The translations under genes were made by a program, and so were the position numbers. From positions 1-53,487 of the forward strand of contig CAMCEM010000005.1 of the NCBI GenBank assembly GCA_945873755.1: a stretch of 53,487 nt of DNA. The letters run 5' to 3'. Below the pieces are notes generated by a model. The model searched no databases, had not been told where the DNA came from, and was given only the letters and a program-made list of their open reading frames with translations. The stretch is from Chitinophaga pinensis (GTDB lineage: Bacteria > Bacteroidota > Bacteroidia > UKL13-3). This document shows positions 7,296 to 12,128 of the stretch, piece by piece (positions within the stretch are counted from its first letter, which is position 1; the number at the start of each line of letters is the position of its first letter).

Positions 7296-7505
7296 TTATG
7301 CATAAATCAATTTTCCTTTTGGCTCAGGTATTGGTCTATTTAATAATTTAGCAGTTTCAATCCATTCTTCAATTACTTGCTCCACATTTATTAATGCTTC
7401 TTTATAAGTAGAACCATCAGCAAGGCAACCTTTTAATTCTGGTACTTCGGCAATAAAAGCACTATCCTCATTGCTCCAGTAAATAATAATTTCATAACGA
7501 TGCAT
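7296..7505 (-). CDS. hicB: HicB-family antitoxin (short form, no DNA-binding domain)
   Basis: YWSNEDSAFIAEVPELKGCLADGST...EWIETAK...PIPEP; ATG at 7505 preferred to TTG at 7511. Confidence 0.9.
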   Translation of the reverse strand: MHRYEIIIYWSNEDSAFIAEVPELKGCLADGSTYKEALINVEQVIEEWIETAKLLNRPIPEPKGKLIYA

Positions 7506-7507
7506 AA

Positions 7508-7759
7508 TCAATTGAGTTTTAATTTATATTTTAAAATTAATTTGCGAACTTGTTCTACTTGATAATTTTTAGCTTTATTTCCTTTTGCCTGCAAATTAAT
7601 AATTTCATCAATACCATTCATATAGAAAATATGGTGACTGCCTTTTATTCGCATTTCAAATCCTAAAGATTTTAACAAATTAACGAGCGTTTCAAAAGGA
7701 ATATTACCATCTGAAGTTCCATTTAAAATTTTCTGAAAAATACTATCTCGTTTACTCAT
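7508..7759 (-). CDS. hicA: HicA-family mRNA interferase toxin
   Basis: LGFEMRIKGSHHIF and AKNYQV motifs; directly upstream of hicB. Confidence 0.9.
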   Translation of the reverse strand: MSKRDSIFQKILNGTSDGNIPFETLVNLLKSLGFEMRIKGSHHIFYMNGIDEIINLQAKGNKAKNYQVEQVRKLILKYKLKLN

Positions 7760-8284: not shown

Positions 8285-8360
8285 AAAATTCTAAATTCTA
8301 ACATCGAAATTCGAATCAAAGCAATTTCTTTTCGAATTTCGTATTTAATTATTCGTGCTT
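8285..8360. repeat. Inverted heptamer cassette (aaattct/aaattcg ... cgaattt) between sufE and sufT
   Basis: aaattctaaattctaacatcgaaattcgaa ... ttcgaatttcgtatttaattattcgtgctt. Confidence 0.65.
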
Positions 8361-8787
8361 AATTATTTTTGCTGTTATACGCTAATGCGTACAATTTTAT
8401 TTGTTTAATCATATTGTTAAATCCATTGCTTCGTTGGCTGCCAATCATGCGGCTCATGCCAATTTTTTCAATGAAAAATAGTTCACTGTTTAAAATTTCA
8501 TCGGGGGTTTGGTTGCTCCAAACTTGAACCAGTAAACTAACCAAACCTTTTGTAATTTCGGTATTGCTATCTGCTTCAAAAATTACTTTGCCATCCATAA
8601 AACTTGGATAAACCCAAACTTTACTTTGGCAACCTTTTACTATAAAATCTTCTGTTTTATGAGCTTCAGGCATGGCAGGCAGTTTTTTACCTAAATCCAT
8701 TAAGTAAAACAAAATGCTTTCCATATCGCCATCGAACAATTCAAAGTTTTCGATGATTTCGTTTTGTATGTCGGTTATATTTTTCAA
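8359..8787 (-). CDS. sufE: Cysteine desulfuration protein SufE
   Basis: VKGCQSKVW, ADS..ITKGL, SQRSNG; suf operon context. Confidence 0.93.
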   Translation of the reverse strand: MKNITDIQNEIIENFELFDGDMESILFYLMDLGKKLPAMPEAHKTEDFIVKGCQSKVWVYPSFMDGKVIFEADSNTEITKGLVSLLVQVWSNQTPDEILNSELFFIEKIGMSRMIGSQRSNGFNNMIKQIKLYALAYNSKNN

Positions 8788-8826
8788 ATAGTTCTTAATT
8801 TTTAGTACCTAGTTTTTAGTTTTTTT

Positions 8827-8933
8827 GCCACAGATTTCACAGATTACACTGATAGATTTTGTATTTATTTTTGTTACAAATTACTTATTTTATAACACAG
8901 ATTTTTTTTATTTTTTTCTGTGTAATCTGTGGC
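8827..8933. mobile_element. Empty MITE-like element with (c)cacagatt 9-mer inverted arms
   Basis: gccacagatttcacagatt (8827-8845) ... tctgtgtaatctgtggc (8917-8933); same arms as those flanking the GxxExxY gene; mobility is inferred. Confidence 0.6.
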
Positions 8934-10204
8934 TATCTTTTTATTAATTTCTTAACTGCTTCCAAAAATACATCTACTTCTTCCAAAGTATTGTAAACCG
9001 AAAACGAAGCACGAATGGTCCCATCTACACCTAAATAGCTCATTAATGGTTGTGTGCAATGATGACCCGTTCTCACTGCAATTCCTTTTGCATCTAACAT
9101 CATGCCTGCATCAAAATGGTGCATGCCGTTAATTACAAATGACTGAACTGAAACCTTTTGTTTTGCTGTTCCGATAAGGTTTATGGGTTGCTGCTGTGGA
9201 GACGTTGCATGCAACGTCTTTACCGATTGGTTGATAGCCAATAATCCATCAACACAATGTTTTAGTAATTCGTTTTCGTGCGTTGCAATATTTTCTTTGC
9301 CAATTTCATTGATAAAATCTAAAGCATATTTAAAAGCAATTACATCGCCAATATTGGGTGTTCCTGCTTCAAATTTATAAGGAATTTCATTGTAAGTAGT
9401 TTTTTCAAAACTCACTTCTTTTATCATTTCACCTCCACCTTGGTAAGGCGGCATGGCTTCTAACAATTCTCGTTTGCCATATAACACACCAACACCAGTT
9501 GGGCCATATAATTTATGCCCAGAAATGGTTAAAAAATCACAATCTAAATCTTGTACATCAACTTCTAAATGCGAGCATGCTTGTGCACCATCTAACAAAA
9601 CTTTAGCGCCAACAGCATGAGCTTTGGTTATAATTTCTTTTACAGGATTAATGGTTCCTAAAGCATTACTCACCCATACGCAAGCCACTATTTTGGTTTT
9701 TGATGAAAGTAATTTTTCATACTCTTCCATCAATAATTCGCCTGCTTCGTTTATTGGAATAACTTTTAAAATAGCACCTTTTTCTTCGCAAATCATTTGC
9801 CAAGGAACAATATTGCTGTGGTGTTCCATGGTAGTTATGATTACTTCATCGCCTGCTACCAAAAATTTTCTTCCCCAAGTTTGGGCAACTAAGTTGATGC
9901 TTTCTGTAACTCCTTTTGTGAAAATACATTCTTCCACTTCCTTCGCATTTATAAATGCTTGAATGGTTTTACGTGTATCCTCAAACATGTCGGTAGAACG
10001 AGCAGCTAGGGTATGTGCAGCTCTGTGAATGTTTGCATTATCGTGAGAATAATATTTAACTAATGCATCAATAACTGCTTGTGGTTTTTGTGTGGTAGCG
10101 GCATTGTCAAAATAAATCAAAGGCTTACCATTAACCTCTTGATGAAGTATTGGAAACTGATTTCTTATTGATGTTATATCTAATTTTTGAGCCACAGATT
10201 TCAC
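8933..10204 (-). CDS. sufS: SufS-family cysteine desulfurase
   Basis: YFDNAATTQKP, EHHSN, SGHKLYGPTG (PLP Lys), RTGHHCTQP; GTG start position uncertain. Confidence 0.95.
   Translation of the reverse strand: MKSVAQKLDITSIRNQFPILHQEVNGKPLIYFDNAATTQKPQAVIDALVKYYSHDNANIHRAAHTLAARSTDMFEDTRKTIQAFINAKEVEECIFTKGVTESINLVAQTWGRKFLVAGDEVIITTMEHHSNIVPWQMICEEKGAILKVIPINEAGELLMEEYEKLLSSKTKIVACVWVSNALGTINPVKEIITKAHAVGAKVLLDGAQACSHLEVDVQDLDCDFLTISGHKLYGPTGVGVLYGKRELLEAMPPYQGGGEMIKEVSFEKTTYNEIPYKFEAGTPNIGDVIAFKYALDFINEIGKENIATHENELLKHCVDGLLAINQSVKTLHATSPQQQPINLIGTAKQKVSVQSFVINGMHHFDAGMMLDAKGIAVRTGHHCTQPLMSYLGVDGTIRASFSVYNTLEEVDVFLEAVKKLIKR
9196..9223. repeat. REP-like palindrome inside sufS
   Basis: Perfect 20-bp palindrome agacgttgcatgcaacgtct at 9200-9219. 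Confidence 0.8.
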
Positions 10205-10230
10205 AGATTTAAATGATTTTTTATTTTACT

Positions 10231-10394
10231 AACCGCAAAGTTCGCAAAGGTTTTTCGCAAAGTTCGCAAAGGTTTACTTCGTGTTCTGGTTTGTTTTATT
10301 TTTTTAACCGCAAAGTTCGCAAAGGTTTTTCGCAAAGTTCTTAAAGGTTTTCTTCGTGCTCTTTGCGTATTCTCTTCGTGTTCTTTGCGGTTAA
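10231..10394. repeat. cgcaaagtt 9-mer array with inverted arm
   Basis: aaccgcaaagttcgcaaaggtttttcgcaaagttc duplicated at 10231 and 10306; ttaaccgcaaag (10304) / ctttgcggttaa (10383) form a perfect 12-bp inverted repeat. Confidence 0.9.
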
Positions 10395-10407
10395 TCTTCT
10401 TAACTAT

Positions 10408-10806
10408 TTAGTTTTCGATTTTATTAGCAACTCTTTTAAGTCCATTTTTTAAAAGTGTTACGTTAAAGTTTATCAAAAGGCCTAGTCTAAAGTCACCTAT
10501 TTTTAAATAAGTTAGTGTTTGAGCCAAATCAACATCGTTCAAGGCTTCTTTTGACTTTATTTCTAGTACCAATTTTTTTTCTACAAGTAAATCTATTCTA
10601 TAACCAATTTCTAATTTAACCTCATTATAAATTAATGGCATTGGCTTTTCTTTTTCAACAAATAAACCTTCTTTCACTAATTCAAAATACAAACATTCCT
10701 TGTAGGCAGATTCTAACAAACCAGGCCCTAATGCTTTATGAACCTTGATTGCACAACCAATTACTTTATTAGTTATTTCTTCTATATTTAAATTACCTTC
10801 AATCAT
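10408..10806 (-). CDS. GxxExxY protein (PD-(D/E)XK nuclease-like)
   Basis: LGPGLLESAY, RIDLLVE..LVLEIKS, Q.LTYLK, GLLINF. Confidence 0.93.
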   Translation of the reverse strand: MIEGNLNIEEITNKVIGCAIKVHKALGPGLLESAYKECLYFELVKEGLFVEKEKPMPLIYNEVKLEIGYRIDLLVEKKLVLEIKSKEALNDVDLAQTLTYLKIGDFRLGLLINFNVTLLKNGLKRVANKIEN

Positions 10807-10841
10807 GTAATCTGTGTAATCTGTGCAATCTGTGGCTAATC

Positions 10842-12128
10842 TTATATCTTTTTCTCTATTTCTTGTTCTAGCAATTCGACCAATTCAGGAATTTTAATTC
10901 TTTCAGCTATATCATCGGCAAATGCGTTTAGCAGCATTTTTCTTGCTACATCTGCCGGAATTCCTCTGCTTCTTAAGTAAAACATAGGTTCTTCGTCTAG
11001 TTGACCAATAGTTGCGCCATGTGTACATTTAACATCATCAGCAAAAATTTCTAATTGGGGTTTGGTATTTACCGTTGCCTCATTGCTTAATAATATATTT
11101 TTGTTACGTTGATATGCATTGGTTTTTTGTGCATCTAAATGAACCATAATTTTTCCATTAAATACCGCCACCGATTTATCCATCATAATGCCTTTGTATA
11201 ATTCATCACTAAAGCAATTTGGGAAAGCATGGTCAACACGTGTGTGGTTATCAACTAACTCTGTTCCATGTGGCATATACAAACCATACAATAAACTATT
11301 GCAGTTTTGTCCGTTCATAAAAAAATGTAAGTTGTTACGCACCAAAGTACCACTTAATGTTAAGGTTACGTGGTTAATATTGGTATTTGCTTCTTGAAAA
11401 ATTTGGGTAAAATTATTGTGGTAACTTTCACCTTCTTGGTTTTGAATTTTATAATGTTCAATATGCGCATTTTCATTAGCATAAACTTCATTAACCGCAT
11501 TGGTAAATGAGGGGTTATTACCAACGGCATAAAAAGTTTCAACCAAAGTTAGCGAAGCACTTTTTTCTACAATAATTAAATTGCGGGGTTGGCACAATAC
11601 ATTTACATCGGTTGAATCGGCAATATTGATTATGATAACAGGATTGGTTAATGTTTTATTATTGGGTACAAATATAAAAGCACCATCACTTAACAAAGCA
11701 GTATTCATGGCATTTAAACCTTGTCCTTCAATGGGAGCATATTTGCCAAAATGTTTGTTAAATAATTCGCTATGAGCTGTTTTGGCTTTAGCTAAAGTAG
11801 TAATAACAATGCTGCTATCAGTTTCAATTATGGTTGAAAGTTCAGTGCGGAAAGTACCATTTACAAAAACCAATTTGTTGGCTGTTAAGTCTTTTAAAAA
11901 CGCATGCGATAGCATCAATTCTGTTTCAATGGTACTTTCGCATGTTGATTGAAACGATTGATTGACAATATTTTTAAGGTTGGTGTATTTCCATTCCTCG
12001 TTTTTGGTGGTAGGAAAACCAACTTTTTCAAATTCAGCAAAAGCTTCTTCACGCTTCAAAAAGAAATCACTTTTCTCCGCTTGATTTTTGTATAAATTAA
12101 ACTCTGCTTTTATATTTTCTACTAACAT
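10842..12128 (-). CDS. sufD: Fe-S cluster assembly protein SufD
   Basis: FPTTKNEEWKYT, KPQLEIFADDVKCTHGAT; ATG at 12128 preferred because the upstream ORF extension is translated repeat. Confidence 0.95.
   Translation of the reverse strand: MLVENIKAEFNLYKNQAEKSDFFLKREEAFAEFEKVGFPTTKNEEWKYTNLKNIVNQSFQSTCESTIETELMLSHAFLKDLTANKLVFVNGTFRTELSTIIETDSSIVITTLAKAKTAHSELFNKHFGKYAPIEGQGLNAMNTALLSDGAFIFVPNNKTLTNPVIIINIADSTDVNVLCQPRNLIIVEKSASLTLVETFYAVGNNPSFTNAVNEVYANENAHIEHYKIQNQEGESYHNNFTQIFQEANTNINHVTLTLSGTLVRNNLHFFMNGQNCNSLLYGLYMPHGTELVDNHTRVDHAFPNCFSDELYKGIMMDKSVAVFNGKIMVHLDAQKTNAYQRNKNILLSNEATVNTKPQLEIFADDVKCTHGATIGQLDEEPMFYLRSRGIPADVARKMLLNAFADDIAERIKIPELVELLEQEIEKKI

Follow-up and report, generated by a model that had tools for sequence, protein, structure and literature searches.

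How does a small gene of the GxxExxY nuclease family come to stand in the middle of the suf operon, between sufD and sufS, and what are the inverted arrays of short words that frame it there? The locus in question lies in a 53,487-nucleotide (nt) stretch of Chitinophaga pinensis DNA (NCBI GenBank assembly GCA_945873755.1, contig CAMCEM010000005.1, positions 1 to 53,487 of the forward strand), the whole of which is called the window here. Sequence comparison points to a family of GxxExxY cassettes with repeat arms, of which the sufD-sufS spacer holds a nested hybrid. A cassette of this family consists of a gene for a PD-(D/E)XK protein of ~125-140 amino acids (aa) between two inverted arrays, each made of 2-4 degenerate heptamers that lie 9-10 nt apart; the heptamer is specific to the clade of the protein, and derivatives without a gene are dispersed in intergenic DNA. 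The outer arms at sufD-sufS, built of the word CACAGATT, are arms of a type-2 cassette, the recurrent occupant of the sufD-sufS and nuoE-nuoF spacers in this bacterial family. Since they enclose a gene of the type-1 clade together with palindromes of that gene's own class, the locus is a hybrid.

A nuclease-family gene inside the suf operon

The spacer between sufD (12173-10842, minus strand) and sufS (10204-8933, minus strand) holds an open reading frame (ORF) of 132 aa at 10806-10408 on the same strand, and thus in the orientation of the operon. The ORF belongs to the type-1 clade and matches the profiles PDDEXK_3 (PF13366; E 2.9e-38, 131.3 bits at a cut-off of 22, 117/117 profile positions) and GxxExxY (TIGR04256; E 2.5e-40, 137.5 bits at a cut-off of 35). 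The motif that names the family reads G29-L-L-E32-S-A-Y35, and the nuclease motif, D72 with E82-I-K84, is intact. Across 75 GxxExxY sequences G27, G29, E32, Y35, D72, K84, Q96, Y100, N113 and F114 are invariant, and E82 is kept in at least 90% of the same set. An AlphaFold2 model of the protein (predicted local distance difference test score, pLDDT, 91.5) has its best fold matches exclusively among PD-(D/E)XK nucleases, with middling scores (Z 8.2 for the nuclease domain of BpuSI, 7.9 for 3ijm and 7.8 for the Cas4 protein SSO0001). With the same model, Foldseek returned nothing from the PDB at E ≤0.001 (best E 1.5e-3), a PDB sequence search with the ORF at E up to 1 gave no solved relative, PHROGs gave 0 matches, and PADLOC gave weak Cas4 and Cas4b matches only (E 7e-4 to 3e-3). 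The motif and the modelled fold say 'nuclease' and no more, and a 2012 survey gives the function of the GxxExxY/PDDEXK_3 family as 'Unknown' (PMC3424549). PDDEXK_3 was the only Pfam match of the ORF, so no Y1 (HUH) transposase is encoded in it, and the element, whose single ORF this is, contains no known transposase. A sequence-only reading of this DNA had already described a GxxExxY gene of this length and orientation, had ascribed a PD-(D/E)XK fold to its family and had remarked on the lack of a known transposase; the coordinates and profile matches agree with that description, and the model favours the fold.

Outer arms and nested palindromes

The same reading had placed arms of 9-nt units at 10190-10209 and 10818-10837, 19/20 complementary, which can be read directly from the sequence, and had let the upstream arm run from about 4 nt past the sufD stop up to the ATG of the gene; the arm in fact begins 4 nt past the TAA and stops 2 nt short of the ATG. 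A repeat search extends the inverted arms to 29 nt at 83% (10190-10218 and 10809-10837). In the sense of the operon, the left outer arm (10809..10837, minus strand) consists of AGCC and three 9-nt units, each with the heptamer CACAGAT, and represents what is called the 'AT class', with CACAGATT as its word. The right outer arm (10190..10218, minus strand) is the reverse complement of the left one at 24/29 positions.

Only these outer arms had been taken in by the sequence-only reading, and two further features add to it. First, the right arm overlaps the start of sufS, and a GTG within the arm is the sole available sufS start; where the sufS of relatives begins ATG-TCA/TCG-AAA-TTA-GAT, the arm here abuts CAAAAATTAGAT. 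Just inside the right arm lies an A-rich tail (10210..10232, minus strand), which is also found in the type-2 cassettes of relatives and in an alternative allele from a lake metagenome (run X1, described below), and comparison with that allele marks the tail as the inner edge of the replaced segment. Second, a repeat search and hairpin folding identified gene-less palindromes at 10219..10400 (minus strand), made of two tandem ~75-nt units (10219-10287 and 10294-10362, 91% alike) and a partner arm that reaches about 10395. These units are built of CGCAAAG/CACGAAG heptamers with the ends TTAACCGCAAAG...CTTTGCGGTTAA, and one of them folds as a hairpin of -31.9 kcal/mol. Their class, the AG class (CRCARAG), is the one that flanks type-1 genes elsewhere, and the usual word of the resident type-1 gene is therefore present only downstream of it, in the form of complete gene-less palindromes.

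On its own, the inverted repeat is modestly unusual and is weak evidence, as its best score of 17 was reached by 8/300 dinucleotide shuffles of 10100-10900. The enrichment of the word cannot be put down to chance: the window has 9 copies of CACAGATT where 1.49 would be expected, a count reached by 0/100 shuffles, and the 3.13-Mb genome has 51 copies of GCCACAGATT, for which base composition predicts ~2.7. Among heptamers in period-9 tandem, low-complexity ones aside, it is the commonest in the genome.

Arm words and protein clades

The layout of inverted word arrays recurs at orthologous and other loci, and the word goes with the clade of the protein. For the type-1 clade, 80 loci were fetched from named genomes and 78 were analysed, L050 and L083 having been dropped for short flanks; the set is mostly from Bacteroidota and also covers Acidobacteriota, Chloroflexota, Ignavibacteriota, Cyanobacteria and Proteobacteria. 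At these 78 loci CRCARAG occurs 127 times forward and 29 times reverse upstream of the gene, and 28 times forward and 135 times reverse downstream of it, with the CACAGAT-type word at background (5, 2, 4 and 2 in the same order). The type-2 set, for which 119 genomes of the bacterial family supplied the 30 best loci, has CRCWGAT 52 times forward and 2 times reverse upstream, 2 times forward and 83 times reverse downstream, and the AG word 0, 0, 1 and 0 times. AT-class words stand on both sides of the gene in 24/30 type-2 loci and in 0/78 type-1 loci, and the type-1 relatives that occupy a split metH in the same genus have CRCARAG arms ending in TTTAACC. In a third clade, which we call C10-type after a copy in the genome of the window, loci of at least 55% identity carry CACATAG or CATATAAG on both sides when read by eye, the automatic label covering 4/10. 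The heptamers of the three clades can be written as CRCARAG for type 1, CRCWGAT(T) for type 2 and CACATAG or CATATAAG for the third; within a class they are degenerate, neighbours lie 9-10 nt apart and the spacers carry little information.

Mapped on a tree of 129 proteins, the 79 loci with an arm label call for 2 changes of arm class, the fewest that three classes allow, whereas shuffled labels need a mean of 21.7 and at least 17; the loci were sampled clade by clade, and 50/129 are without an automatic arm label. The expectation of the sequence-only reading that inverted word arrays are tied to GxxExxY genes, and that the sequence of the unit co-varies with the protein clade, is borne out by this tree, by the oriented word counts and by all four copies in the genome of the window. 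Its idea of a unit of gene and arms stands in so far as word arrays belong to GxxExxY clades in general, and falls for the very case on which it was built, as this gene and these arms are not cognate. The CACAGATT arms are not specific to this gene either, since they also occur around no gene at all (8827-8936) and before other small ORFs.

The sufD-sufS junction in relatives

Junction DNA was searched in 40 related genomes, and the spacer was read where sufD and sufS share one contig. Fourteen junctions of the same genus could be read, a fifth type-1 carrier being cut by a contig end and three genomes giving no junction. The same 132-aa type-1 gene, 87-95% identical, is present in 4/14, and a type-2 GxxExxY gene (137-139 aa, ~35% identical to type 1) lies between orthologous arms in 5/14. 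The other 5/14 have no GxxExxY gene, in line with the empty sites that had been expected in relatives, and their spacers of 32-129 nt hold an unrelated hairpin repeat; a hairpin known from an insert in the sufS of the window (9185-9235) also fills the sufD-sufS spacer of the genomes G004, G014 and G015. The right arm and the A-rich tail are common to type-1 and type-2 alleles, and the internal CGCAAAG units vary between 1 and 4 copies among relatives. AT arms bracket the type-1 gene in the genome of the window (G000) and in G009 and G005; in the type-1 carriers G016 and G008 the right arm is absent and the ancestral ATG of sufS is kept. Among the loci sampled, the hybrid arrangement is confined to this junction in this genus. 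Beyond the genus, 13/30 type-2 loci are at sufD-sufS and 12/30 at nuoE-nuoF, in several genera, and the type-2 copy at sufD-sufS in G021, from another genus, is pseudogenised by an in-frame stop.

Contigs from four runs were compared with the window, the parts without contig cover including the gene body at 10421-10723. A 3982-nt contig from a lake metagenome (run X1) is 96%, 98.4% and 99.8% identical over sufE/sufS, sufS and sufD, respectively. In this contig 515 other letters replace 10233-10878, the right arm and its tail are shared, and divergence within sufD is confined to the last dozen codons. Different fillings of the junction thus circulate between near-identical backgrounds. That the 515 letters are a type-2 cassette is a guess from their length, which fits the 513-nt type-2 spacer of relatives.

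Gene-less arrays and further cassettes

The genome contains 58 AT-class arrays of at least 2 heptamers each, of which 4/58 lie inside ORFs of at least 150 aa, although such ORFs cover 79% of the genome. Within the window, 4 of the 9 CACAGATT copies form an inverted pair in the sufS-sufE spacer, where word counts and an alignment to the genome G018 delimit a gene-less 110-bp element with the same AT arms (8827..8936, minus strand). The TAG stop of sufS falls within the terminal TAGCC of this element. Over its full length it can be aligned with the part of the G018 type-2 cassette that runs from the gene stop to the right arm (score 64, shuffle maximum 24), which means that the 'right arm' of that cassette belongs to a complete, degenerate gene-less unit behind the gene, a layout that recurs at the sufD-sufS locus of the window. 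In two other species the sufS-sufE spacer carries a CRCAAAG (AG-class) palindrome, and in others it is 2-45 nt long with neither array. Run X1 has a 9-nt unit more in the right array of the window's sufS-sufE element, inserted at 8916, so that arrays change by whole units.

Array termini read GCCAC...GTGGC or CCCGC...GCGGG, often extended to TAGCC...GGCTA, and at several loci the arm-terminal TAG, or the TAA of TTAACC in the AG class, is the stop codon of the upstream gene. Insertion just after stop codons, as the sequence-only reading proposed, might leave such an overlap, but selection against disruptive insertions would produce it as well. No target duplication was seen by eye at 17 elements, where the palindromic TA of TAGCC...GGCTA could hide a duplication of 2 nt. 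Two gene-less AT elements of G000 were sought in the five closest genomes, whose flanks are only ~80% identical and whose synteny breaks at the elements.

Inverted arrays of 7-nt words flank each of the four GxxExxY genes in the genome, and the words differ. The window copy at sufD-sufS has CACAGAT arms. The C20 copy at nuoE-nuoF has CACTGAT/CACAGAT arms and is followed by a 3' gene remnant with a second arm; the C14 copy, between a resistance-nodulation-division (RND) pump gene and the gene of its outer-membrane partner, has CGCAGAT arms, and the C10 copy at rplS-valS has ACATAGA arms. The architecture extends to genes of another kind: the genome has 10 four-helix-bundle genes (TIGR02436, rRNA-IVS-type; contigs C159, C189, C2, C200, C94, C24 and C26, loci L149-L158), most of which have inverted arrays on both sides, each gene with a short word of its own, and the one on C189 occupies the split metH site that holds a type-1 GxxExxY cassette in G001 and G017. 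Six strong Y1_Tnp genes (PF01797, RAYT-like, ~150 aa; contigs C40, C49, C105, C81, C57 and C60, loci L145-L148) are each flanked by short hairpin repeats of their own, without heptamer arrays, and are a separate population in the same genome, akin to repetitive extragenic palindromic (REP) sequences and their REP-associated tyrosine transposases (RAYTs).

Two regions of the genome deserve separate mention. At C14:30650-30950 (L001) three arm-like arrays lie between the GxxExxY gene and the outer-membrane-protein gene, the likely signal-peptide frame of which crosses the last array, with no ordinary start codon nearby. At C20:4971-5770 two small ORFs (74 and 102 aa) are each preceded by a left arm of the AT class, with right arms at the end of the region; the 102-aa ORF has a hydrophobic N-terminus, and the cargo here is other than GxxExxY.

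A possible mechanism

The history that we favour is that the type-1 gene and the two following gene-less palindromes of its own class replaced a type-2 gene between its arms. Each nuclease would bind arrays of its own heptamer as a multimer and would cut at or beside them, whereupon host repair and recombination could copy, delete or exchange the DNA between arrays. Through such cutting and repair, gene and arrays would persist together as a selfish unit, as RAYT genes do with REP sequences. Ordinary homologous recombination in the conserved genes on either side may also carry whole cassettes from strain to strain. Taken as a whole, this account, with the hybrid cassette, its history and the nuclease mechanism, seems to us evenly poised between being right and being wrong. 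A wider proposition would see in GxxExxY proteins the enzymes behind a class of selfish DNA that spans phyla and had gone unrecognised, in which a minimal PD-(D/E)XK nuclease reads arrays of its own 7-nt word and cuts there to drive copying, loss and exchange between inverted arrays; this may prove correct, and yet we would lean against it.

A number of points weigh against this account. The mechanism is inferred throughout, with binding, cleavage and movement all predicted, and a PD-(D/E)XK nuclease alone cannot join DNA. The congruence of clade and arm rests on two changes among three clades only, the 50/129 loci without an automatic arm class stand outside it, and it would arise with no recognition at all if gene and arms were simply inherited together. 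A strict ungapped inverted-repeat score of at least 12 is found at 41/78 type-1 and 15/30 type-2 loci versus 29 and 65 of 300 cross-locus pairs, a score that is noisy and that same-class arms also reach across loci, for which reason it was dropped as a statistic of association in favour of oriented word counts. Upstream, the window gene itself adjoins an array of another class than its own. The array architecture is shared by most of the 10 four-helix-bundle genes, which do not encode nucleases, and two other small ORFs lie behind AT arms, so the arms need no nuclease inside them. Furthermore, type-2 proteins cluster by site, with 4 changes versus a shuffled mean of 13.4 (by genus there are 13 changes, and five shuffles gave 20-23), and much of the spread of type 2 could stem from vertical descent or from recombination through the flanks; long residence combined with such exchange could account for the clustering without transposition. 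Finally, among the family genomes with at least 5 strict AT arrays (n=33), a type-2 or C14-type gene is present in 21 and absent from 12, one of which has 41 arrays, and among those with fewer arrays (n=86) it is present in 24; these counts use thresholds set post hoc and related genomes, and variant arrays escape the strict pattern.

Competing explanations

Several of these points are at home in the alternative that survives best, which holds that the arrays are moved or maintained by another trans-acting enzyme or by host replication and recombination, and that the GxxExxY, four-helix-bundle and small ORFs are cargo with a function of their own, for example in addiction or defence. The shared layout of non-nuclease genes, the array-rich genomes without a cognate gene and the site-clustered phylogeny of type 2 all suit it, and the insertion at 8916 of a whole 9-nt unit is consistent with slippage. 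Nevertheless, the heptamer is kept within a protein clade across phyla and the spacers are not, which argues that whatever reads the heptamer diverges together with the gene. Similarly, each four-helix-bundle gene has a unit of its own, which fits an enclosed protein reading its arms better than one common enzyme, and the RAYT-like genes go with other repeats. A defence function finds little in the weak Cas4 matches from PADLOC and nothing in PHROGs. We consider the cargo explanation unlikely.

The original proposal, of a single autonomous element formed by the 132-aa gene and the CACAGATT arms, with a protein that recognises exactly these 9-mers and inserts the unit after stop codons, draws on the arms around the gene in three genomes, on the dispersal of the same arms in the genome and on the arm ends (TAGCC, TTAACC) that overlap stop codons at several loci. 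It is difficult to reconcile with the comparison of clades, in which AT-class words flank none of the 78 other type-1 loci and same-genus type-1 relatives have AG arms. At the junction itself, the same arms hold type-2 genes in 5 genomes of the genus, the right arm is absent in the type-1 carriers G016 and G008, and AG-class palindromes lie within the arms. We regard this proposal as improbable.

No better placed, in our estimate, is the idea of an RNA device of the kind seen in 23S rRNA intervening sequences (IVSs), in which the arms would pair in the suf transcript, RNase III would cut the stem, the ORF would be released or insulated, the operon would tolerate it and complementarity would be kept for the sake of pairing. 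The outer arms can indeed form an RNA duplex of 24 bp (-29.5 kcal/mol), the cassette is co-oriented with the operon, and the IVS of Coxiella burnetii, 428 nt long, has a small ORF enclosed by a terminal stem of 28 bp, which RNase III cuts (PMC4990558). On the sense strand, however, G:U-compatible arm mismatches are not in excess of A:C ones (81 versus 98, in the 78/108 loci with a usable repeat), and the mismatches fall at the degenerate R (purine) positions of the heptamer, a pattern more in keeping with protein sites on DNA than with a stem in RNA. An Rfam scan of 8300-11000 at E up to 1 gave 0 families and no rRNA.

That the cassette has no mobility and belongs to the suf operon as a fixed regulatory or structural part, inherited vertically, as the site-clustered GxxExxY genes at this junction in several genera might suggest, is barely credible, being contradicted by the alternative allele in the near-identical flanks of run X1, by the 5/14 same-genus genomes that lack the gene and by the alternation of two clades at the junction, and at odds with the same cassettes in nuo, metH, RND-pump and rplS-valS contexts and pseudogenised copies such as that of G021.

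Relation to known systems

The closest analogues of the cassette are REP/RAYT systems and ORF-bearing rRNA IVSs, and it lacks defining features of each. REP/RAYT systems (PMC3116915, PMC3337134, PMC3733652) also place a small enzyme gene between inverted copies of a short repeat, which is dispersed without the gene through intergenic DNA as well, often in inverted doublets; likewise, no target duplication is seen, and the type of repeat goes with the lineage of the gene. Their enzyme is a Y1 HUH transposase, whereas that of the cassette has a predicted PD-(D/E)XK fold, and REP repeats are single 20-40-nt hairpins with GTAG or CGTC heads, whereas cassette arms are direct 7-nt arrays with a 9-10-nt period that are palindromic only as a pair. 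Moreover, the genome of the window has RAYT-like genes of its own with different repeats.

The 23S rRNA IVS of Coxiella burnetii with its S23p ORF (PMC4990558) resembles the cassette in its size (~0.45-0.65 kb), its one ORF of ~120-140 aa, its terminal inverted repeats, its toleration in an essential transcription unit and its unexplained origin and mobility. Its stem is cut by RNase III (PMC4990558). The cassette arms bear no sign of selection for RNA pairing. A further likeness is that the S23p-type four-helix-bundle genes of the window's genome carry the same repeat-array arms. The IVS differs in that it sits in a 23S rRNA helix and encodes an S23p four-helix bundle, while the cassette sits in the protein-coding sufD-sufS operon and encodes a member of a nuclease family.

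Autonomous transposons with terminal inverted repeats (TIRs) and miniature inverted-repeat transposable elements (MITEs) have inverted ends, which their gene-less deletion derivatives keep. The cassette shares the inverted ends, has gene-less derivatives in which the ends and part of the interior survive, and has left a 3' gene remnant with an arm beside the C20 copy. It differs from them in lacking a DDE or other transposase beside its single PD-(D/E)XK ORF, in having no duplication visible by eye at the 17 elements, apart from any of 2 nt that the palindromic TA may hide, and in ends that are multi-copy word arrays. Free-standing homing endonuclease genes are found between conserved genes, as in the case of seg and mob of phage T4, and I-Ssp6803I is a homing enzyme of the PD-(D/E)XK fold. 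As with these, the cassette is a small nuclease gene in the spacer of conserved, co-transcribed genes, present or absent among close relatives, and its alleles are exchanged together with the adjoining flank (run X1). Unlike the cassette, homing genes are not known to lie between dispersed repeat arrays or to occur as gene-less copies. The short tandemly repeated repetitive (STRR) heptamers of heterocystous cyanobacteria are tandem 7-nt words in intergenic DNA, as are the arrays described here, and the type-1 locus L108 of Coleofasciculus has CGCAGAG arrays on both sides. In the literature searched, which excluded subscription-only papers and supplements, there was no link of STRR to a gene family, the STRR papers listed being concerned with fingerprinting, and no published description of the unit of gene and arms. 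The repeat-armed GxxExxY cassette is a widespread element and apparently one that had not been described.

GxxExxY/PDDEXK_3 is a large orphan family found in many phyla, and the tie between clade and heptamer turns the pairing of protein and word into a concrete question and may account for the word repeats that abound in intergenic DNA. If the nuclease drives the system, it would be a second, mechanistically unrelated solution to the way of life of REP/RAYT. Should the wider proposition hold as well, an orphan family would gain a function and the tandem heptamer repeats of Bacteroidota, cyanobacterial and other genomes would be explained; the locus of the window would then be a natural swap experiment, with a nuclease of one specificity between the arms of another, and, together with the four-helix-bundle cassettes, the rRNA IVS would become a special case of a general 'word-array cassette'. 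If the nuclease is not the driver, the cassettes are still a recurrent, site-faithful class of insertion that gene callers and repeat finders ignore. Cassettes inside essential operons (suf, nuo, metH) alter the codons at which neighbouring genes stop and start, and strains exchange them, which bears on annotation and on strain variation in metagenomes.

Neighbouring genes and other repeats

The remaining genes of the suf cluster are sufB (14555-13104), sufC (13036-12257) and sufE (8787-8359), all on the minus strand. Adjoining the cluster, two small overlapping minus-strand ORFs (71 and 83 aa) lie at 7296-7759; judged by eye, they may be a toxin-antitoxin pair.

Inside sufS, at 9185-9235, there is a palindromic repeat with the core GACGTTGCATGCAACGTC, which stays in frame, encodes VKTLHATSPQ and has 5 copies in the genome. 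At its position there is a gap of 8 residues in G003, G007, G009 and G005 and a different, longer insert in G010, G012 and G013, and in run X1 70 other letters replace 9173-9245. A joint from 8852 to 10808 in run X1 was rejected as a repeat artefact, as it has only 30 letters on one side.

Elsewhere in the genome, many AT arrays abut another recurrent word (CCAACAAC), the commonest period-7 tandems are AACAACG-type words, and several repeat families cluster in the same spacers.

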